Positions 42,202 through 54,276 of a stretch of 64,000 bases of DNA are shown one piece after another. Numbering within the stretch: position 1 is the first letter of the stretch; each line of letters begins with the position of its first letter. This DNA comes from Candidatus Nomurabacteria bacterium RIFCSPLOWO2_12_FULL_40_42. Its GTDB lineage: Bacteria > Patescibacteriota > Minisyncoccia > Phycocordibacterales > UBA9973. Location: NCBI GenBank assembly GCA_001786195.1, contig MFVS01000008.1, positions 21,057 to 85,056 of the forward strand, given 5' to 3'. The notes under the pieces are model-generated. The model ran no database searches. It had not been told where the DNA came from and worked only from the letters and a program-made list of their open reading frames with translations. A program made the position numbers and the translations under genes.

Positions 42202-42595
42202 TCATTTATGTGGAGGAGTTTTCTTTTCGAGACCTTTCTTCCAACCACCCAGCATTCTGCCTATTTCCTGCAAGTGTTCGGATAGAGCAGAATACTTTTC
42301 ATTCGGGATGCATTTATTTCCCCAAGCTATCTGCAGAAAGAATTTTATGCCGTCGAGTTTGGAAATCGCGATGATGAGACGAGGTATTTTAGTTTCCGGC
42401 GGGAGATATATTGAAACAAAAATATTTTCCAAAAGGCCGAGGAAATAATCTTCTATCTTTCCACCTAGGGTGTAGCGGTGCGCCTTTGGAAAATCATTGT
42501 ATATTTTAAACCAAAGAGAATAGGCTGTTTTTGTCTTTAAAAGCGCTGAAGGCGCTGCGGGGGGGGGTCCCGGAAATATGAAACAATTTATTCAT
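42202..42595 (-). pseudogene. avd: Avd (accessory variability determinant; four-helix-bundle family), antisense to the TR/RT, apparently frameshifted
   Basis: Minus-strand frame encodes ...YSLWFKIYNDFPKAHRYTLGGKIEDYFLGLLENIFVSIYLPPETKIPRLIIAISKLDGIKFFLQIAWGNKCIPNEKYSALSEHLQEIGRMLGGWKKGLEKK, matching the TIGR02436/Avd consensus. There is no in-frame ATG/GTG/TTG upstream. ATG 42593-42595 is in the -1 frame and terminates at 42506, implying a frameshift near the A5/G9 homopolymers. Confidence 0.5.
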
Positions 42596-43588
42596 ACTTA
42601 CGATAGTACCATAACAATAGAAAAACTGCTCAAGGCATGGCAGGAATTCGTGCGCGACAAGAAAAACAAAAAAGATGTGATTTTATTCCAGGCCAAGCTG
42701 ATGGATAACATATTCGATCTTTTTAATGATCTTAAAAACAAAACTTACAAGCACGGCGGTTATATCGCTTTTAATATATCAGATCCTAAACCTAGGCAAA
42801 TACACAAGGCAACAGTTCGAGATAGGTTGCTGCATCATTTGATATATCGAGAACTTTACGAACATTTTAATTCAAAATTTATCCACGACTCATATTCCTG
42901 CCGATTAAACAAAGGAACCCACAAAGCGATCAACAGATTCCGCGATTTTTTCCGAAAAGTTTCCAAAAATCACGCAAAGACGTGCTTTGTTCTCAAGTGC
43001 GATATCAAGAAATTCTTTGCCAACATTGATCATCAAATTTTAAAGCAAATTTTAGAAAAACACATCGAAGACAAAAATATTATCTGGCTTCTTTCACAAG
43101 TTATAAATAGTTTTTATACTCAACTAAATACTAAAAACTCTGCGATAGCAGAAAGTTTAGTAAAAGGTTTGCCATTAGGGAATCTAACTTCCCAACTTCT
43201 GGTAAATGTTTACATGAATGAATTTGACCAGTTTATGAAAAGAGAATTGAAAGTAAGGTATTATATACGATACGCAGACGATTTTGTAATATTGAGTGAT
43301 AATAAAAATTATCTTGAAGACTTACTTCTAAAGGTCTCTAGCTTCTTAGAAAAAGAATTAAAATTACAATTACACCCAGACAAAGTTTTTATGAAAACTT
43401 TCGCTTCCGGTGTTGATTTTCTAGGCTGGGTACATTTTTCAAAGTATAGAGTTTTGAGGACGAGTACAAAAAGAAAGATGTTGAGGAATCTTGAAAAAAA
43501 TTTTAAAGAAGAGTCACGACAGTCATATTTAGGAATGTTGAAACACGGGAATGCTTATAAGCTCAAAAGTGAGATTGAAAACTTATAA
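42578..43588 (+). CDS. DGR reverse transcriptase
   Basis: 336 aa. Motif 2 VLKCDIKKFFANIDHQIL. Motif 4 GLPLGNLTSQLLVNVYM, the DGR-diagnostic [ILV]GxxxSQ in place of QGxxSP. Motif 5 RYADDFVIL. Confidence 0.9.
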   Translation: MKQFIHTYDSTITIEKLLKAWQEFVRDKKNKKDVILFQAKLMDNIFDLFNDLKNKTYKHGGYIAFNISDPKPRQIHKATVRDRLLHHLIYRELYEHFNSKFIHDSYSCRLNKGTHKAINRFRDFFRKVSKNHAKTCFVLKCDIKKFFANIDHQILKQILEKHIEDKNIIWLLSQVINSFYTQLNTKNSAIAESLVKGLPLGNLTSQLLVNVYMNEFDQFMKRELKVRYYIRYADDFVILSDNKNYLEDLLLKVSSFLEKELKLQLHPDKVFMKTFASGVDFLGWVHFSKYRVLRTSTKRKMLRNLEKNFKEESRQSYLGMLKHGNAYKLKSEIENL

Positions 43589-46353: not shown

Positions 46354-47859
46354 ATGCGAGATAGGATTTTTTATGCGATATGTTTTGGTTTTATCTTTGG
46401 GGTGTTTTTGCGCTCTTTTTTATTTTTCAATTTATATTTTGCTGTTTGGGTCGCAGTGGTCAGTGTGGCCTTAGCTTTATTTTTCTCTCTAATTTCTAAA
46501 AACAAGTGGGGCATCATATTCTCCATTTTTATTTTAACTTTTTGCTTAGGAATTTTCAGATTTCATGCGGCAGATGTTCCATCACCTAGTGTTTTCGAAT
46601 CGCAGGTGGGTCAAAAAGTATTTTTCACTGGAAAAATTATAGATGAACCGGATATAAGGGAAAATAATCAAAAACTGACTATTGAAGCGCAAATTGGACA
46701 AGACCCACGTCAGGGCGGGGCAAGCAAAACTAAAATTTTAGTCACTGTAAATTTCGGTCAGGATTTTAAATACGGCGACGAGGTAAAATTTTCGGGAAAA
46801 TTACAGAAACCGGAAAATTTTATGACGGATCAGGGTAAAAAGTTTGATTATGTAAATTATTTAAGGAAGGACGGGATTTATTACGTAATGAATTATGTAA
46901 ATGTCGAGGTCATCTCAGGGGGGAATGGCAACATAATTAAAAGCGCGCTGTTTTTCGTAAAAGAAAAGTTCTTAGCGAAAATGGATTTTGCTATAAAAAC
47001 TCCTGAATCGCTTCTCATGGGTGGTTTGATATTGGGCGAGCGTTCTTCTTTTAATAATGAAATGCGAGAGAAGTTTATAAATACTGGCACGATCCATATC
47101 GTGGCTCTCTCGGGATACAATGTGACAATCGTCGCCGAATGGATTATGAAACTATTTTCTGGAGTGCCTTATGTAGCTAAAAATTTCGGCATTGGGATGG
47201 GTATTTTCACTATTTTGCTTTTTGTGTTGATGACGGGTGGGAGTTCGACTGCGATCCGGGCGGGGATAATGGCGACCTTAGCGCTAATTGCCCGCGCGAC
47301 CGGGAGAAATTATGACGTCGCGCGGGCTCTCATGCTCGCCGGGGTGGGAATGATTTTACTAAATCCTTTTGTGCTAGTTTACGACGTATCTTTTCAGCTT
47401 TCTTTTATCGCGACAGTGGCGGTAATATTTTTTACCCCTAGAATTGAAAAATATTTTTTATGGGCGCCAGATGTTTGCAAACTGCGGGACATCATTTCCG
47501 TCTCCTGTGCCGCCTATATTTTTGTCTTGCCATTTATCCTCTACAAAATGGGCAATCTTTCTCTAGTCGCCCTGCCGGCCAATATTTTAATTCTACCGTT
47601 TATCCCGTTTACCATGTTGCTCGGGTTTCTGACTGGTTTTGTCGGGCTTATTTCATATATATTGGCTGTACCCATAGGCTATATTTCCTATCTCATGCTT
47701 CATTATGAACTCGGAGTGATAAATTTTTTCTCCAGTCTGCCCTTTGCCGCTTTTTCTGTTCCGAATTTTCCGCTCATTCTAACAACTTTAATTTACATCT
47801 ATTTTATTTATAGACTTTTTGGCAGAAATATAAAGAGTTTCTTTACTGCGTCCCAATAA
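46354..47859 (+). CDS. comEC: ComEC/Rec2 competence channel (membrane domain only)
   Basis: About 10 TM helices. ALSGYNVTIVA and FQLSFIATVAV are competence-domain signatures. No beta-lactamase domain in this ORF. Confidence 0.75.
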   Translation: MRDRIFYAICFGFIFGVFLRSFLFFNLYFAVWVAVVSVALALFFSLISKNKWGIIFSIFILTFCLGIFRFHAADVPSPSVFESQVGQKVFFTGKIIDEPDIRENNQKLTIEAQIGQDPRQGGASKTKILVTVNFGQDFKYGDEVKFSGKLQKPENFMTDQGKKFDYVNYLRKDGIYYVMNYVNVEVISGGNGNIIKSALFFVKEKFLAKMDFAIKTPESLLMGGLILGERSSFNNEMREKFINTGTIHIVALSGYNVTIVAEWIMKLFSGVPYVAKNFGIGMGIFTILLFVLMTGGSSTAIRAGIMATLALIARATGRNYDVARALMLAGVGMILLNPFVLVYDVSFQLSFIATVAVIFFTPRIEKYFLWAPDVCKLRDIISVSCAAYIFVLPFILYKMGNLSLVALPANILILPFIPFTMLLGFLTGFVGLISYILAVPIGYISYLMLHYELGVINFFSSLPFAAFSVPNFPLILTTLIYIYFIYRLFGRNIKSFFTASQ

Positions 47860-48448
47860 CTTTAGAAAAGTTTTTCTCTACAACCTCCCAGTTAACATTA
47901 TCCAAAAAAGCATCAACATATTTTTTCTTATCTGTCGCATAATCCAAATAAAAGGAATGTTCCCACATATCAATTCCAAAAATCCAAGCAAGTCCGGTAA
48001 GGTGTCCTAGATGTTGTTCGTCAATCCAAGCATTGAGAAGTTTTTTATTAATGGGGTCATAATAAAGCACTGCCCAGCCAATACCTCGCGTCATAGCAAT
48101 TGTTTTGAAGCGAGCGAACCAAAGGTCAACGCTACCCCATTCTTCCGTCATCGCTTTTTTAAGCGGACTTTCTCCTTTCACGATTTTTGCTCCACCTTCT
48201 AAACTTTTGAAATAATATTCGTGATTTCTCATTCCATCAAACTCAAAAGCGAAGCGGCGCTGAATTTCATCTACGACATAGGGTGCAAAAGTATCTTCCT
48301 TCGTATAACCTTGATATTCAGGAATTTTTTCTAAAATAAGATTCGCATTTTTAACATAGCCAGCATAAAGTTTTAGGTGTTCTTCAATTGTTTTTTTTGA
48401 TATTCCTTTTAATTCTCCGATATTGAATTTTATTTCTTCAAATTTCAT
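47843..48448 (-). CDS. Fe/Mn superoxide dismutase
   Basis: C-terminal DMWEHSFYLDYATDKKKYVDAFLDNVNWEVVEKNF matches the SOD DVWEHAYYL...VNW signature. Start at MKFEEIKF (48448). Confidence 0.8.
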   Translation of the reverse strand: MKFEEIKFNIGELKGISKKTIEEHLKLYAGYVKNANLILEKIPEYQGYTKEDTFAPYVVDEIQRRFAFEFDGMRNHEYYFKSLEGGAKIVKGESPLKKAMTEEWGSVDLWFARFKTIAMTRGIGWAVLYYDPINKKLLNAWIDEQHLGHLTGLAWIFGIDMWEHSFYLDYATDKKKYVDAFLDNVNWEVVEKNFSKVIGTQ

Positions 48449-48466
48449 GTGTGCTACTATTATATC

Positions 48467-49336
48467 ATGTGGCGTAAAAAGCAAAAGTATACTCTGTGGA
48501 TACTAGTCATTGGTTTAATTATTGTAAATATTTTTCTTTTCCGCTTAGATTGGAAGAATTCTCACCGAGGTCTCACTTTTGCAATGCTGGACATCGGGCA
48601 GGGTGACGGGCTTTTTATTGAGTCGCCAACTGGAACGCAGATATTAGTGGACGCTGGTCCGCCTAGAAAAATATTAAGTGCTCTTGCGCGTATGATGTCG
48701 CCATTTGATCGGCACATAGATGCGATTGTGATTACCAATCCGGATGCGGATCATATCGGTGGATTTCTGGATGTTTTAAAAGTTTATAAAGTAGATAGAG
48801 TATTTGAGCCCGGCACATATAATGATTCTAAAACTTATCAGAATTTAGAGAATGAAATAAAAAATAAAAATATTCCGGATATTTTGGCAAAAAAAGGTAT
48901 GAGGCTGGATATCGGAGGCGGAGCAGTGATTGATATTTTGTTTCCAGACAGAGATGTTTCATTGTGGGACAGCAATGACGGATCAATTGTAGCAAAATTA
49001 ACTTATGGCAAGACTTCCGTCATGCTTACTGGGGATGCAACTGCCGAAACAGAAAAAATAATTCTCGAGGAATTTTCCTCGCTGCAACTTTGGAGCACTA
49101 TTTTAAAAGTTCCACATCACGGCTCGCGGACTTCTTCTTCGGTTGCTTTTGTAAAAGCTGTTTCACCCTCGTATGCCCTAATTTCGGATGGTAAAGACAA
49201 TAAATATGGTCATCCACATCAAGATACATTGGATACTCTAACTTTATTCGGCGCAAAGATTTTTAGAACTGATTTACTCGGGACCATTATTGTAAAGTCG
49301 GACGGGAAAAGTGAAAAAATTCAACCTTTGCATTAA
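48467..49336 (+). CDS. MBL-fold metallo-hydrolase (ComEC C-terminal-domain-like), separately encoded
   Basis: N-terminal TM helix. GQGDGLFIESPTG, ITNPDADHIGG, MLTGDAT and LKVPHHGSR are the metallo-beta-lactamase motifs found at ComEC C-termini. Confidence 0.75.
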   Translation: MWRKKQKYTLWILVIGLIIVNIFLFRLDWKNSHRGLTFAMLDIGQGDGLFIESPTGTQILVDAGPPRKILSALARMMSPFDRHIDAIVITNPDADHIGGFLDVLKVYKVDRVFEPGTYNDSKTYQNLENEIKNKNIPDILAKKGMRLDIGGGAVIDILFPDRDVSLWDSNDGSIVAKLTYGKTSVMLTGDATAETEKIILEEFSSLQLWSTILKVPHHGSRTSSSVAFVKAVSPSYALISDGKDNKYGHPHQDTLDTLTLFGAKIFRTDLLGTIIVKSDGKSEKIQPLH

Positions 49337-49502
49337 AATGTAGCCCTTTCCTAGCCCAGTAGATTTTTTCATACTAGGGTCTGGAAGGGAATCCGCGCGG
49401 GTTTCGGCTTTTTGTTTTGGCGGGATTTGGGTGGGCTTTTAATTTAAAACATGGCCTCCTATAAATAATATAACAGAAAAGAAATGTGCTAGAATAAAAA
49501 CT

Positions 49503-49958
49503 ATGTTTTCCGTATTCAGAGAATGGTGGATTTTAAGACAATTAACAAAGCGTTGTATGAAAAAAGACGTGAGAATTTTATCTAATGGAGGGGACATAAA
49601 TGAATATGGCCATATTTCAAAAGAGAAGTTCTTAAATGAGATTTCAGCAAAGTTTTTGGGGATAATACCTAGAACAAAATATTGGCAAATGCGTTTAATT
49701 CGCAAATATAGAGGGACTCTTGAAATAAGTAAGAAAAGAAATCCCTATTATGCAGTTGAAGGTTTTGATGGAACAGAAAAATGGATAAAAATTTCGGCAC
49801 ATGGAGATGATTTTAAACTTTTAGTTGCTTTTAGAGAATGGTTAACATTATGGAAAGGAGTGTTGATTCTTATAATTACAGTTTTTGGTTCCCCTTATCT
49901 TCTTATTTTTAGAAATTGGTTCATTAAAATTACTACACCTTATTTTCCTTTGTGGTGA
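49503..49958 (+). CDS. hypothetical protein (islet)
   Basis: 151 aa with a C-terminal hydrophobic helix. No recognised family. Confidence 0.3.
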   Translation: MFSVFREWWILRQLTKRCMKKDVRILSNGGDINEYGHISKEKFLNEISAKFLGIIPRTKYWQMRLIRKYRGTLEISKKRNPYYAVEGFDGTEKWIKISAHGDDFKLLVAFREWLTLWKGVLILIITVFGSPYLLIFRNWFIKITTPYFPLW

Positions 49959-50016
49959 TTGTGATATAATAAGTACAAGAATACAAAAAAATTATTAATT
50001 AACAAGAGGAAATAAT

Positions 50017-50211
50017 ATGAATAATTTAACTGGTTTTGATTATAAGCGGGTTGGGATATTACTAATTTCCGTGTTGGTTGGTTATTTTGTGGTAATTTTG
50101 ACCGCGCCAATGTTTGAAAGTTCAGGAGTAAGTGGTATAGGCGGTCTTCTAGGACTTCTCTGTGCGATAGTAGTTTATAAAAGATTAACAAAAAAAGAAA
50201 TTAAAAGTTAA
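50017..50211 (+). CDS. small membrane protein
   Basis: 64 aa with two hydrophobic helices. Confidence 0.3.
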   Translation: MNNLTGFDYKRVGILLISVLVGYFVVILTAPMFESSGVSGIGGLLGLLCAIVVYKRLTKKEIKS

Positions 50212-50541
50212 GAAAAAGTAAAATGGACTACGAAGACTTGCAAGAAGAAAACTTAAATTTTGACGAAAGACTAACCAACCTTGAACATCAATTTAGCAAA
50301 CTCAGTAGAAGTTTGGATTTTTTTCTTCCATTAATGGGTGGGGCTATTCTTATTATTCTGTGGAAGATTTTTTTCTAGAGCAATTAAGTATATAGTTCCC
50401 AATATTTATATAATACCCAAAATAATAGATTTTTTCAAGGTGTATTGCTTATTTTAACAAGCTTGAATTTTGCTTGACCTCGTTTGTTTGCTATATTGAC
50501 ATGAGTTTGCTCTTGATCTCAATTTTTAGTATCATATAGGT

Positions 50542-51024
50542 ATGTCTCTACATCGGAAAAAGTACCAAAATGCTGTCTTGTACTTGTGCCAAAAACTAAA
50601 AGGTGAAGTACGGGGAAAGAAAAAATTGGCGAAATTATTATATTTTGCTGATTTTGACTTGTACGAAAAAATTCAAAAATCAATAACTGGAGATGTGTAT
50701 AATGCCCTTCCTATGGGGCCAGTTCCTTCGGCGTTGGAAGAAATCACCAAAGAAATGGTTAAAAATAAAATTCTTGGAATTAAGCAAGTTCCCGAGCGTG
50801 AAGGATACAATGCAACAGAAGTTTATAAATGTCTTACTGAACCAGATTTGTCTGTTTTTGATGAAGAAGAAAAAAAAATGCTTGATCGAATTGTGGTCAA
50901 ATACGGTCATTTGAACGGAAAACAATTGGAAGAGTTGTCTCACGCAGAAGCGCCCTACATTGGCACAGAATTACGAAAGGAAATTCCGTATGAGTTAGCT
51001 TTCTATCGTGGTACTGAATTTTAA
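50542..51024 (+). CDS. Panacea-domain (DUF4065, SocA-like) antitoxin-type protein
   Basis: KKLAKLLYFADFDLYEKIQKSITGDVYNALPMGPVPS matches the Panacea/SocA signature. Confidence 0.65.
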   Translation: MSLHRKKYQNAVLYLCQKLKGEVRGKKKLAKLLYFADFDLYEKIQKSITGDVYNALPMGPVPSALEEITKEMVKNKILGIKQVPEREGYNATEVYKCLTEPDLSVFDEEEKKMLDRIVVKYGHLNGKQLEELSHAEAPYIGTELRKEIPYELAFYRGTEF

Positions 51025-51030
51025 TGATTT

Positions 51031-51399
51031 ATGATTGAATTTTTCTACCATGACGGCATTCAGAAAGAAATCGTCGATCTAGAGCGACGATTTCGCACTA
51101 TACGCCAGGGTTTAGCTTCTTTTGAGAGATTGTGTGAAGTTCAATTTAATCCAACGCAACCGAAACAGGTTATTGCTCCGGCTAAATTACATCGCGTCAC
51201 TCAAAATGATATCTGGACACTCTGGAAAACCGAACTTGTTATCCCAAATTCTGGATTGAGACCAAATCAATGGCCAAGAGTTTGGTTTGTTGTAAAAGGA
51301 GACATGATAGCTTTTTTGTGTATTTCTTCTCATGTTGATAATTATAACGACGAAGACATAAGCAACCTGGCTATTTCCCGAGTGTCTGATTTTTTTTAG
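51031..51399 (+). CDS. hypothetical protein, candidate toxin partner of the Panacea protein
   Basis: 122 aa ORF 6 nt downstream of the Panacea gene. Confidence 0.35.
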   Translation: MIEFFYHDGIQKEIVDLERRFRTIRQGLASFERLCEVQFNPTQPKQVIAPAKLHRVTQNDIWTLWKTELVIPNSGLRPNQWPRVWFVVKGDMIAFLCISSHVDNYNDEDISNLAISRVSDFF

Positions 51400-51404
51400 C
51401 TCGC

Positions 51405-51460
51405 CAAGATTTTCCGGACGGACTTACTCGGCACTATTATTGTAAAATCAGACGGGTCTG
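51405..51460 (+). pseudogene. degenerate duplicate of the 3' end of the MBL gene (insertion scar)
   Basis: About 80% identical to 49250-49305. Would encode AKIFRTDLLGTIIVKSDG, as does the real gene end. Confidence 0.45.
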
Positions 51461-51475
51461 TGTTAAGATGGCAGT

Positions 51476-52732
51476 ATGCCAAGTAAAATGTTAGACAAAC
51501 TAGTAGAAAAATTAATCAAATCGGAAGAAAAGAGACAGCGGGAAGGGTTGGAGCTTATCCCTTCGGAGAATTATGTCTCCGAAGATGTGCTCACGGCAAA
51601 CGGTTCGGTTTTTACCAATAAATATTCCGAAGGCTATCCGGGGCGCAGATATTATGGTGGGCAAGAAAATACAGATGCGATCGAGCGGCTCGCCATAGAG
51701 CGGGCTTGTAAATTATTCAATTGTAAATTTGCCAATGTCCAGCCGCACTCTGGCGCTCCGGCCAACTTGGCTGTATACGCGGCCCTGCTCGAACCAGGGG
51801 ACACAGTTTTGGGAATGGATCTTTCCCATGGCGGGCATTTGACGCATGGTCACCCGATGACGCTTCCAGCCAAGATTTATAATTTCGTCCGATATAAAAT
51901 GAAGGATCCGGAGACTGGCGAGATCGACTACGAAGACCTCCGCCGGGTGGCAATCGAAAAGAAACCAAAAATAATTCTGGCTGGTTTCTCCGCCTATTCT
52001 CGCACACTAGATTATAAAAAATTTGTGGAAATTGCGCGGGAAGTGGGGGCAATCACTATGGCCGATATGGCACACATCGCCGGGCTGATCGCGGCCGGGG
52101 CGCTTCGCAATCCGTTTGATGACGGTTTTGATATTATTACTTCGACGACGCACAAGACTCTGCGTGGCCCGCGCGGTGGCTTAATCCTTACTCGTGAGAA
52201 TGAAGAAATTGCCAAGAAAATTGATAAAACAGTTTTCCCAGGCATCCAAGGCGGCCCACATATGCATACGATTGCCGGGAAGGCTGTGGCTTTCGGCGAA
52301 GCTCTGACGCCAAAATTTAAAAAATACGCGGTCCAGGTTTTAAAAAATGCCAAAGCTATGGAAGAAGTTTTAAGAAAGAATAATATTCGCATGATCGGCG
52401 GTGGCACCGACAATCACCTAATTTTGGCTGATGTTTTCGGCTCTCTGGGGGTGACCGGCAAAGAGGCCCAGACGGTTTTCGACGAAGTCGGGATTACGCT
52501 CAATATGAATATGATCGCGGACGATCCGAGGAAGCCGATGGATCCGTCCGGAATTAGGTTCGGTACGCCAGCTATTACCACCAGAGGTTTCAAAGAGAAA
52601 GAATGCAAGCGGGTGGCGGAGCTTATGATTTCTGTCCTCAAAAACAAAGATGATAAAAAATTAAAAGAATCAGTACATAAAGAAATCAAAGCGCTGGCCA
52701 AAAAGTTTCCGATACCAAAGAAGTTTGTGTAA
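51476..52732 (+). CDS. glyA: serine hydroxymethyltransferase
   Basis: LELIPSENYVS...GYPGRRYYGG...TTHKTLRGPRGG PLP-lysine motif. Confidence 0.92.
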   Translation: MPSKMLDKLVEKLIKSEEKRQREGLELIPSENYVSEDVLTANGSVFTNKYSEGYPGRRYYGGQENTDAIERLAIERACKLFNCKFANVQPHSGAPANLAVYAALLEPGDTVLGMDLSHGGHLTHGHPMTLPAKIYNFVRYKMKDPETGEIDYEDLRRVAIEKKPKIILAGFSAYSRTLDYKKFVEIAREVGAITMADMAHIAGLIAAGALRNPFDDGFDIITSTTHKTLRGPRGGLILTRENEEIAKKIDKTVFPGIQGGPHMHTIAGKAVAFGEALTPKFKKYAVQVLKNAKAMEEVLRKNNIRMIGGGTDNHLILADVFGSLGVTGKEAQTVFDEVGITLNMNMIADDPRKPMDPSGIRFGTPAITTRGFKEKECKRVAELMISVLKNKDDKKLKESVHKEIKALAKKFPIPKKFV

Positions 52733-52735
52733 AAC

Positions 52736-53200
52736 ATGTCTCACATTCACGAAAAAATTGATTTTACGGTAGAAGTTTTCATTGTCTATAAAAACAAAGT
52801 GCTGCTTCGCATGCACGACAAGCATCACCGCTGGCTTTCGGTCGGCGGGCATATCGAGCTCGATGAAGACCCAATCCAGGCGGCGATGCGGGAAGTGAAA
52901 GAAGAAGTGGGGCTTAAGGTAGAAATTATCGGTTCCAAGCCGGAAATTAAAGATGAGTCTGATTACAAACATCTGGTTAGTCCCAAATACCTCGGGTGCC
53001 ACATTGTAAATGAGACCCATAAGCATATTACTTTTGTGTATTTCGCTCTTTCTTCTTCCGATACAATAGTGGATTCTCTAATGGAGCACGAGCGAATGGA
53101 GACCCGTTGGGCAACCAAGGAAGAATTGAAAGCAATGGGCCTGCGGCCAAATATTTTATTTTACGCCACAGAGGCGTTGAAAGAATTAGGTAAAATGTAG
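52736..53200 (+). CDS. NUDIX hydrolase
   Basis: Nudix box GGHIELDEDPIQAAMREVKEEVGL. Confidence 0.8.
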   Translation: MSHIHEKIDFTVEVFIVYKNKVLLRMHDKHHRWLSVGGHIELDEDPIQAAMREVKEEVGLKVEIIGSKPEIKDESDYKHLVSPKYLGCHIVNETHKHITFVYFALSSSDTIVDSLMEHERMETRWATKEELKAMGLRPNILFYATEALKELGKM

Positions 53201-53220
53201 AATTGCAGATTAGAAAAATT

Positions 53221-53259
53221 AAATGATACAATCTTTGCCATGGCAGAATATGTATCACT
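53221..53259. repeat. about 39-bp hairpin repeat, copy 1 (TGATACA..TGCCATGGCA..TGTATCA)
   Basis: Nested palindrome between two convergent genes. About 80% identical to the copy at 53759-53797. Confidence 0.5.
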
Positions 53260-53734
53260 CAATATACGACCTAGCTAGCTTAAAAATTCTAATACATTTG
53301 TCGAGTTTTATTTCTTCAAGATATTTTTTGAATTCTGCCGGCAGGGGAGATGGTCCGACCCAAACACTTTTTTGAATCATCATGTAGTCAAATTTTTTGA
53401 GGTGCCATCGGAGCCATTCTCTTTCCGGCTTTCTTTCCGTTGGTACATCAAACATTAAAAGAAGATTTTTATCTTTAGAAATATTTTTTGGCTTACTAAA
53501 TTGTTTGAGAGAATCAATTTTTCTTCTGACATATTCTTTTCCGTTTTTTGAAAGAATAACACCGGTTAATTGTTTTTCGATGATATTTTTTCGTTTTAAA
53601 CGATCAATCACTGTTCGGATGCTCCTTTGTGAGTATTTTTTGAAACGAGGAATGCCAAAAATATTCACGGACGTTCCTTTGTATTTGATTTCTGTATCCC
53701 AAAGCTCTCTCAGGATCTCTTTTGCAATAGACAT
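53255..53734 (-). CDS. hypothetical wHTH protein with Cas2/VapD-like C-terminal fold
   Basis: N-terminal winged-helix-like region. C-terminal NLLLMFDVPTERKPEREWLRWHLKKFDYMMIQKSVWV has a Cas2-like beta-alpha-beta pattern with a conserved Asp. No CRISPR array in the window. Confidence 0.4.
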   Translation of the reverse strand: MSIAKEILRELWDTEIKYKGTSVNIFGIPRFKKYSQRSIRTVIDRLKRKNIIEKQLTGVILSKNGKEYVRRKIDSLKQFSKPKNISKDKNLLLMFDVPTERKPEREWLRWHLKKFDYMMIQKSVWVGPSPLPAEFKKYLEEIKLDKCIRIFKLARSYIE

Positions 53735-53758
53735 GCAATGTATTGTAATTCAAAGACA

Positions 53759-53797
53759 AAAATGACACAAGCTCTGCCATGGCAGAAAGTGTGTCAT
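53759..53797. repeat. about 39-bp hairpin repeat, copy 2
   Basis: AAATGACACAAGCTCTGCCATGGCAGAAAGTGTGTCATT lies in the divergent intergenic region. Compare with copy 1. Confidence 0.5.
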
Positions 53798-53871
53798 TGG
53801 GAATAAATATAACAAAGGTGTATAATGAAAAATGTTATACGCTAGAAATTTATCCAGGCTAAAAATTAACT

Positions 53872-54276
53872 ATGAAAATATATTTTGCAGTATCAGTCAG
53901 GGCAGGACGAAATGATGCCCCTATATATCCAGAGATTATAAAACTTCTTAAAAAATACGGTGAAGTTTTGAGTGAGAGAAATGGAGACCCATCTTTTCAC
54001 GGAGAAATAAATATGACTGATAAAGAAATATTTGATCGAGATATGGATTGGTTAAGGTCAGCCGATGTATTGGTTGCTGAAGTTACAACCCCAAGTCTTG
54101 GGGTAGGTTATGAAATTGCCGCTGCTTCTAATATAAGAAAACCAGTTCTTTGCTTGTATCGAAAAGTCCCAGGCAAAAAAATTTCTGCTATGATTAATGG
54201 AGATACAAAATTGACAGTAAAAATTTATAAAACAGTAGCAGATTTGCCGGAGATTTTAAAAGAATTTTTTAAGTAA
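53872..54276 (+). CDS. 2'-deoxynucleoside 5'-phosphate N-hydrolase-like (DNPH1/Rcl family)
   Basis: MKIYFAVSVRAGRND...ADVLVAEVTTPSLGVGYEIAAA...ISAMINGD closely follows the DNPH1 consensus. Confidence 0.7.
   Translation: MKIYFAVSVRAGRNDAPIYPEIIKLLKKYGEVLSERNGDPSFHGEINMTDKEIFDRDMDWLRSADVLVAEVTTPSLGVGYEIAAASNIRKPVLCLYRKVPGKKISAMINGDTKLTVKIYKTVADLPEILKEFFK

Follow-up and report, generated by a model that had tools for sequence, protein, structure and literature searches.

A Panacea-bearing islet between two copies of an MBL gene end upstream of glyA in a Candidatus Nomurabacteria genome

We examined a 64,000-nt stretch of contig MFVS01000008.1 from Candidatus Nomurabacteria bacterium RIFCSPLOWO2_12_FULL_40_42 (hereafter the window), in which an islet of five genes separates a ComEC-type metallo-beta-lactamase (MBL) gene from glyA. 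The islet consists of open reading frames (ORFs) of 151, 64 and 51 amino acids, a SocA_Panacea gene and its 122-amino-acid downstream partner, as listed in the original prediction, which had taken the region for an old insertion bracketed by degenerate direct repeats of the MBL 3′ end. Our analysis supports this interpretation with refinements. The left repeat forms the end of the present MBL gene, and the right one, which we call the scar, leads into glyA. In the explanation we favour, with roughly even confidence, foreign DNA bearing a copy of an MBL-glyA junction recombined with the resident junction.

A repeated MBL gene end around an islet

The two copies of the MBL end (left copy, Table 1; second copy, 51402-51456) form a 55-nt direct repeat with 45/55 identical positions (82%) and a start-to-start distance of 2150 nt. 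The original prediction had recognized this repeat of the MBL 3′ end and its shared peptide, setting the second copy 3-5 nt away from its actual position. It is the top direct repeat in the surrounding 8 kb: its 55.4 bits compare with 27.8 on average and at most 36.5 in 100 Markov simulations. Nor is it low-complexity sequence, so the low-complexity artefact that had been raised as grounds for doubt does not apply. The same arrangement recurs in at least seven long contigs (52-125 kb) from separate samples and assemblers, with a shared stretch of 17 kb and an identical locus, which rules out an artefact of assembly. The closest database records for the locus are Candidatus Nomurabacteria metagenome-assembled genomes from the Rifle aquifer.

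Both copies encode AKIFRTDLLGTIIVKSDG in frame, and 10/10 nucleotide differences between them are synonymous. The ~13.3 synonymous sites of the repeat are effectively saturated, the ~40.7 non-synonymous sites carry zero change, and 200,000 random placements of 10 substitutions on the repeat all altered the peptide. This pattern indicates that the copies diverged as coding sequence in separate genomes. Judged from these substitutions, the left copy is an MBL 3′ end that evolved separately as coding sequence and arrived with foreign DNA. The repeats are thus not decayed duplicates of one sequence. Past the repeat, a TAA stop follows in the same register after both copies (49334 and 51484) and is itself followed by AATGT in both, and the 27-nt tails that come directly after the repeat copies match at a random level. 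The longest identical runs between the copies are 11, 8 and 8 nt, and the 11-nt run (ATTATTGTAAA) includes a rare Val codon.

Each repeat copy also holds a promoter-like site on the minus strand (51439-51466 and 49286-49317). The site in the scar, TTAACA and TACAAT separated by 16 nt (10/12), outscores all others in the 3.3 kb scanned and would point antisense into the downstream gene of the Panacea pair.

With the MBL protein we retrieved 52 related species-level genomes. All relative loci long enough to show gene order have ComEC-N, superoxide dismutase on the minus strand, MBL and glyA in succession, and in 50 of the 52 genomes the MBL stop is -28 to +232 nt away from the glyA start. No islet gene occurs in any of the 52, and a search of them with the islet interior gave no match beyond the MBL 3′ end. 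The comparison that the original prediction had proposed, a search in relatives for an MBL gene followed directly by glyA, is therefore positive, and the insertion itself is supported. Its supposed old age is not: the scar is undecayed, and a diverged sister lineage bearing the islet was not confirmed.

MBL tails fall into three classes that go together with the geometry of the MBL-glyA junction: ..xxxxFSFxK with a spacer (class i), ..KCxxxxCEIN with an overlap of 16-19 nt (28 nt in two loci; class ii) and ..MLRWxxxR with an 11-nt overlap (class iii), each followed by the stop codon. The TAG stop of the 122-amino-acid ORF leads straight into the scar in the same frame, and the scar ends in SVLRWQYAK and a stop, a class iii tail. 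Three relatives (L008, L009 and L053) have this tail type (..MLRW..) together with the 11-nt MBL/glyA overlap and represent empty sites. The scar aligns colinearly with two of them, L008 and L009, into glyA, in agreement with the earlier proposal that it is the displaced original 3′ end of the MBL gene. In two further relatives, the junction holds another single gene of ~285 amino acids with an HD-domain-like motif (L020, 6905-7771; L021, 6909-7760) and has no scar, indicating that this junction has been hit more than once.

Table 1. Features of the MBL-glyA region in window coordinates
Feature	Positions	Strand	Remarks
ComEC-type MBL gene	48467..49336	+	Pfam Lactamase_B 5.5e-12; last 28 codons are the left repeat and the new tail
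Left repeat copy, surrogate MBL 3′ end encoding AKIFRTDLLGTIIVKSDG	49252..49306	+	Differs from the scar at synonymous sites only
Atypical new tail KSEKIQPLH, TAA stop and shared TAAAATGT	49307..49344	+	Stop register same as that of the scar
Spacer with two hairpins, including truncated GC-rich element 49377-49449	49345..49449	+	Fold and terminator scan
glyA-type extended -10 and ATG heading ORF151	49476..49505	+	Third fragment derived from an MBL-glyA junction
ORF151, orphan, hydrophobic C-terminal segment	49503..49958	+	Homologs in the same population only
ORF64, small, probably two-pass membrane protein, orphan	50017..50211	+	Sub-threshold hits only
ORF51, C-terminal hydrophobic segment	50223..50378	+	Starts 11 nt after ORF64; called as a gene in some assemblies
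PanA/RelE-fold toxin-antitoxin cassette, -35 box to toxin stop	50504..51400	+	DNA homology to 77 metagenome loci
Cassette promoter: TTGCTC, 17 nt, TATCAT, 6 nt to ATG 50542	50507..50535	+	Read from sequence; both boxes conserved across loci
panA, Panacea-domain antitoxin, 160 aa	50542..51024	+	Pfam SocA_Panacea
Putative toxin, 122 aa, RelE/HigB/YafQ-type fold	51031..51399	+	
Scar: last 28 MBL codons and stop, tail ..AKIFRTDLLGTIIVKSDGSVLRWQYAK	51402..51486	+	Type overlapping glyA; colinear with empty sites L008, L009 into glyA
glyA extended -10, TGTGTTAAGAT	51459..51469	+	Then 6 nt, ATG 51476
glyA (serine hydroxymethyltransferase)	51476..52732	+	Pfam SHMT 2e-153

At the left end of the islet, the MBL gene acquires an ending of its own. 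MBL homologs are mostly 289 amino acids long, and the tail KSEKIQPLH is confined to the window's population among the 120 homologs and 52 loci compared. A possible frameshift origin from a class i tail (..FNF..), judged by eye, has no support in the alignment. Downstream of the tail, the spacer contains a predicted terminator-like stem (49388-49405) followed by a T run. The promoter and ATG that head ORF151 then resemble the regions upstream of glyA in relatives, matching L013 at 27/30 positions and sharing 18 identical nt with L024 and L031. The Smith-Waterman score of this segment is 37, compared with 20.9 +/- 2.7 (maximum 30) for shuffles. Among the 27 extended -10 sites of the window it ranks second to the real glyA site, and the remaining 25 score at most 29. 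Overall, and on sequence grounds, a whole foreign MBL-glyA junction seems to make up the left ~255 nt of the islet, with its 3′ end, stop, hairpin spacer and glyA-type promoter with ATG. Because the region upstream of ORF151 is glyA-promoter-like, the foreign block would carry the entire junction. For a mere exchange of the 3′ end the rest of the junction would be unnecessary, and its presence points towards a chromosomal donor.

The resident junction and the start of glyA

In relatives, the promoter motif TGnTAnnnT ends 5-8 nt before the glyA ATG in 36 of 41 cases, compared with a background of 0.6%, and in tail classes ii and iii this -10 box falls inside the tail codons of the MBL gene. The scar has the motif at the correct spacing. 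Going by this conservation, the resident MBL end appears to be glyA's promoter and leaderless start. An insertion sparing both genes must then leave that end with glyA and give MBL a new end, and the scar has probably been retained because it holds the promoter and start of glyA. The original prediction was right about the position of this leftover, but it is not mere debris, since glyA's conserved promoter and start reside there. We found the promoters of both glyA and panA by comparative alignment and sequence reading; a general promoter scan reported neither.

The MBL gene (at 48452, then ATG 48467), ORF151 and the genes for RNase H and dNK are preceded by the same layout of extended -10 and ATG. 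In the window as a whole, 27 sites have TGnTAnnnT spaced 5-8 nt from an ATG (e.g. 45785, 48452, 49487, 51461 and 54310), several of them exactly at called gene starts. This recurrence suggests frequent use of leaderless mRNAs by the organism.

The 5′ end of glyA (51476-51499) consists of a 12-nt quasi-tandem repeat (ATGCCAAGTAAA / ATGTTAGACAAA), hence its two in-frame ATGs. The first (51476) is at the promoter-defined position, and the second (51488) matches the relatives' start. Farther downstream, the window has three genes that are absent from L008 between glyA and the dNK/thymidylate-kinase gene (52736-54276; NUDIX, a minus-strand PaaX_M-like gene and nucleoside deoxyribosyltransferase), as well as an extra helix-turn-helix gene before dUTPase. 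Upstream of the islet, ComEC is encoded in two pieces, DUF4131 plus Competence (46354-47859) and the MBL domain (48467-49336), parted by an opposite-strand Fe/Mn superoxide dismutase gene (47843-48484). Essentially all 52 relatives show the same split. An RVT_1 reverse-transcriptase gene encoding 336 amino acids (42578-43588) lies ~6 kb upstream of the islet.

A Panacea cassette among orphan genes

By its homologies, the islet is a mosaic of a widespread 0.9-kb toxin-antitoxin (TA) cassette and an otherwise orphan remainder. The ORFs of 151, 64 and 51 amino acids belong to no family and have no homolog outside the window's population; for ORF151, no family was found in Pfam, NCBIfam, PADLOC or PHROGs.

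The cassette begins with panA, whose product matches PF13274 over residues 29-139 (E = 6.3e-22; 79.1 bits, cut-off 25.7). Against the NCBIfam SocA equivalog NF047745, it scores 24.9 bits where the cut-off is 190. The 122-amino-acid partner has a RelE-type alpha/beta fold. It gave no sequence match in Pfam, NCBIfam, PADLOC, PHROGs or PDB, and the same holds for 39 family members and the family profile. This toxin family is small and unnamed (74 clusters at 50% identity) and is placed by fold alone; K66, R83, H101 and Y105 are nearly invariant in it and plausible as catalytic residues. With its RelE/HigB fold the partner is not SocB, and the antitoxin falls far short of the SocA equivalog, which refines the Panacea/SocA-like pair originally proposed. 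By analogy with family and fold, PanA would bind and neutralise its partner, which would act as a RelE/HigB-like toxin cleaving mRNA on the ribosome.

The pair resembles several known systems in part. It shares with PanA-PanT (Kurata et al. 2022) a Panacea antitoxin upstream of a small toxin in a conserved, mobile two-gene unit; here, however, the partner comes from a small unnamed family placed by fold, and the cassette is concentrated in groundwater bacteria of the candidate phyla radiation (CPR). Panacea antitoxins are highly mobile, and the toxins they pair with span many folds, MqsR-like and ParE among them (PMC8832971). SocAB, a type VI TA system of Caulobacter, has the SocA/Panacea domain in its antitoxin as well, but the toxin here is of RelE fold, and the ClpXP-adaptor mechanism is not implied. 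Compared with the ribosome-dependent mRNA endonucleases RelE, HigB and YafQ, the putative toxin shows no sequence match, and PanA stands in place of HigA, RelB or DinJ.

The two genes occur together in 77 metagenome loci and in L141-L143, where they either overlap or are separated by 6 nt. Cassette homologs make up 546 clusters, of which the best 120 (75-94% identity) come from Nomura-, Lipton-, Wolfe-, Davies-, Vogel- and Sungbacteria. DNA homology in the 77 loci (66-96%) starts between ~50504, at the -35 box, and 50613, and it ends at the toxin stop where the locus extends there. The exceptions with homology outside the cassette are L067 (leftward to 50407) and L064 (a separate element matching 49377-49449). 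On the right-hand side the cassette has 51 distinct contexts; in another Nomurabacterium, for example, it is the ATP synthase operon that lies downstream. These data indicate that the TA cassette is horizontally mobile. A viral-contig scan found no copy of the toxin. The panA -10 box lies 6 nt before the ATG, predicting a leaderless panA mRNA, and with no terminator before glyA, TA transcripts probably read into glyA.

Several features of the cassette and its flanks vary among loci or stand out within it. In L067 (1082-1573), panA is frameshifted into ORFs of 70 and 92 amino acids and the toxin gene is intact. Within the window's toxin gene, a 28-nt near-perfect palindrome (GAAATCGTCGATCT/AGAGCGACGATTTC; 51067-51094) lies over the conserved EIxxLERRFR codons. 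In ~8-10 of the 51 right-hand contexts (among L079, L107, L113, L116, L126/L127, L070 and L069), a long GC-rich hairpin follows the toxin stop; its loop is rich in G or C, and its end is often ..GCGAGCC. A subclade of right flanks has the common motif TAATnnCCGCCGATTTTTGCC. A GC-rich element of ~70-85 nt also occurs near TA cassettes, in the window (49377-49449, truncated on the left), in L064 (395-490 and 2235-2322) and in L135 (1860-1897). The two copies in L064 are inverted and bracket a 249-amino-acid ORF together with the TA cassette, resembling terminal inverted repeats. The hairpins and the flank motif might be terminators, repetitive extragenic palindrome (REP)-like elements or recombination sites. 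In the window, an Rfam scan of 48400-51600 gave no match. We rejected the 22 nt after the L067 toxin stop as a second MBL scar, as cassettes of the L079 clade have the motif behind them in contexts that are unrelated; L144 is too short to help on this question.

Routes by which the islet may have arisen

The explanation we favour starts from related Nomurabacteria, where MBL ends and glyA begins in a single tight junction, with the last MBL codons containing or closely preceding the extended -10 of glyA and a glyA mRNA that appears leaderless. Recombination would have placed a 2.15-kb foreign block (49252-51401) inside this junction. The block would start with another lineage's complete junction, consisting of 28 MBL codons, a tail, a stop, a terminator-like hairpin spacer and the glyA-type promoter and ATG now driving ORF151, and it would end with the self-contained TA cassette. 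The MBL protein would stay full length because the block supplies a replacement 3′ end, and the resident 3′ end would stay with glyA as the scar because that end is glyA's promoter and start.

Two routes could lead to this outcome. In one, a circular intermediate would integrate by a Campbell-type single crossover. In the other, equally conceivable, a homologous exchange would take place on the side of MBL and an illegitimate join would form over short imperfect homology, where the 3′ flank of the cassette would meet the MBL codons AKIFRT. The right junction falls in a patch of ~18-22 nt that resembles the conserved 3′ flank motif of the cassette: L067 matches at 15/22 positions, and the motif recurs in the L079 clade. 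As a mirror image of either route, glyA and the scar may have been the incoming piece.

Homology-facilitated illegitimate recombination accompanies natural transformation in Acinetobacter, Streptococcus pneumoniae and Pseudomonas stutzeri. The second route would share with it a one-sided homologous anchor, a join at short patchy homology and the lack of a dedicated recombinase, in a host that encodes ComEC and with the gene for the ComEC MBL domain as target. It would differ in that no anchor crossover was located and the outcome is a duplicated junction, not a simple replacement, and the process is not known from CPR bacteria. The term itself is in use (PMC6382021).

A number of observations weigh against recombination between junctions. 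We found no donor locus: ORF151, ORF64 and ORF51 are orphans, and the tail KSEKIQPLH was seen nowhere else. The longest run of identity, 11 nt, is too short for ordinary RecA exchange within the repeat, so the crossover would lie upstream or depend on short homology. Neither MBL nor glyA gives a mosaic signal against the available relatives, all at least 20% diverged. Likewise, no recombination breakpoint emerged from binned nucleotide identity between ComEC-N and glyA (12 relatives) or from per-segment protein identity by tail class, as would follow from relatives this distant. The imported side may be either the block or glyA with the scar, and the promoter, terminator and toxin activities are predictions. 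The peptide, including a Val found in ~8% of homologs, is identical in both copies, a mild coincidence under a distant donor and, by sequence, a mild point for a closer relationship or a short core. Finally, the candidates for related alleles (L062, P0003 and P0242) are short or read-level assemblies and possibly chimeric.

Among these candidates, L062 is a 1560-bp contig from the same study that is identical to window positions 48155-49276 bar one base. At 49277 it switches abruptly to a class i MBL tail, a 58-nt spacer and a glyA that is 69.5% identical, and it represents either an islet-free allele produced by recombination or an assembly chimera. P0003 (85% identical MBL, same tail) and P0242 were rejected as an islet-sharing sister lineage, both being read-level protein assemblies (source 'SRC', SRR3989338). 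The last ~125 residues of P0003 are identical to the window and the preceding part is diverged, so that this record is probably chimeric. Read-level proteins that are half identical and half diverged, as P0003 and P0242 are, can mimic sister lineages or recombinants and are unfit as evidence without DNA.

The islet may also, though we think this unlikely, be the remnant of a site-specific integrative element (a prophage or island) that targeted the last 28 MBL codons and brought a surrogate 3′ end, with the integrase and most cargo since deleted to leave the TA cassette and three small ORFs. Its layout is that of e14 and phage 21 at the E. coli icd gene, where the element inserts in the 3′ gene end and completes the gene with a replacement, and the native C-terminal fragment icdC is left at the far end as a direct repeat with mostly synonymous differences (PMC13626634). 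As at icd, the MBL gene is intact by means of a surrogate 3′ end, and its native C-terminal fragment lies at the other end. The insert is bracketed by direct repeats from the target 3′ end, the site is empty in relatives, and the 11-nt run ATTATTGTAAA with its rare Val codon could be an att core, being compatible with one but not diagnostic. The circular or attP form predicted for such an element would run from the toxin stop through an MBL-like arm and then ...GTCGGACGGGAAAAGTGAAAAAATTC. Because of addiction, a TA module is generally expected to survive the loss of its surrounding element, so the cassette could have outlasted deletion of the remainder.

Against an integrative remnant, no recombinase domain was found in the five islet ORFs or within ~8 kb, and the element has no match in viral contigs and no intact or longer version in the collections searched. 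Unlike e14 and phage 21, the islet has no integrase, no identifiable att core beyond 11 nt and a length of 2.15 kb only. Its left end additionally carries a spacer and the downstream gene's promoter and start, which are superfluous for an attP, and the displaced fragment is the predicted promoter of the next gene. The scar is undecayed despite the near-total deletion of the element, and the cassette flank motif already accounts for the position of the right junction. There is no tRNA gene within 10 kb of the islet.

Distinctly improbable, in our judgement, is that the PanA/RelE-fold unit is itself a recombinase-free mobile CPR cassette, extending from promoter to stop, spread across phylum-level lineages by DNA uptake and inserting by short-homology recombination via the 3′ flank motif CCCGCC-GATTTTCGC or the GC-rich hairpin elements. 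Were this true, the MBL-glyA junction would have been one of several landing sites, since the AKIFRT codons by chance mimic the cassette flank. Other classes of mobile element fit poorly. The islet has no terminal inverted repeats at its ends and no transposase, and its repeat of at least 55 nt diverges at synonymous sites only, which sets it apart from transposons, insertion sequences and miniature inverted-repeat transposable elements. Neither does the islet resemble an integron cassette, as in the window the TA cassette abuts the scar without a hairpin and no intI-like gene lies nearby.

We give very little credence to a duplication in place, in which the insertion itself would have duplicated ~55-93 nt of its target, through a long target-site duplication or replication slip, followed by divergence in situ. 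Such an event would explain the identical peptides with their lineage-rare Val, the same stop register and the TAAAATGT common to both copies after divergent tails. It would also fit the fact that the copies match each other at 44/54 positions and any of the 52 relatives at no more than 43. However, the differences are synonymous throughout and saturated, and an unselected scar would have decayed (0/200,000 trials keep the peptide). The 27-nt tails are at random-level identity, and the terminal inverted repeats and transposase are lacking. Synonymous-only differences rule this origin out unless the scar peptide is under selection. The chance that the repeat is fortuitous or an assembly artefact, such as a chimeric join of two strains, is negligible: short chimera-like records of the MBL gene do exist (the L062 switch at 49277; P0003, half identical and half diverged), but the repeat is far above simulations, lies in frame, aligns with empty sites and recurs with the shared 17-kb arrangement in long contigs of different origin.

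As an insertion, the islet is a fairly ordinary gene-island case and does not overturn current understanding. The locus shows that an insertion can be tolerated in a junction even when the final codons of one gene are the promoter of the next. That junction is now present twice, as the copy from the incoming DNA and as that of the resident chromosome. For the annotation of streamlined genomes, the layout of extended -10 and leaderless start (~27 sites in the 64-kb window) offers an aid, as does the division of ComEC by a superoxide dismutase gene in antisense, a conserved trait of the Nomurabacteria examined. Furthermore, the presence of the TA cassette at high identity across many CPR lineages is evidence of recent gene flow among organisms thought to be dependent on DNA uptake.

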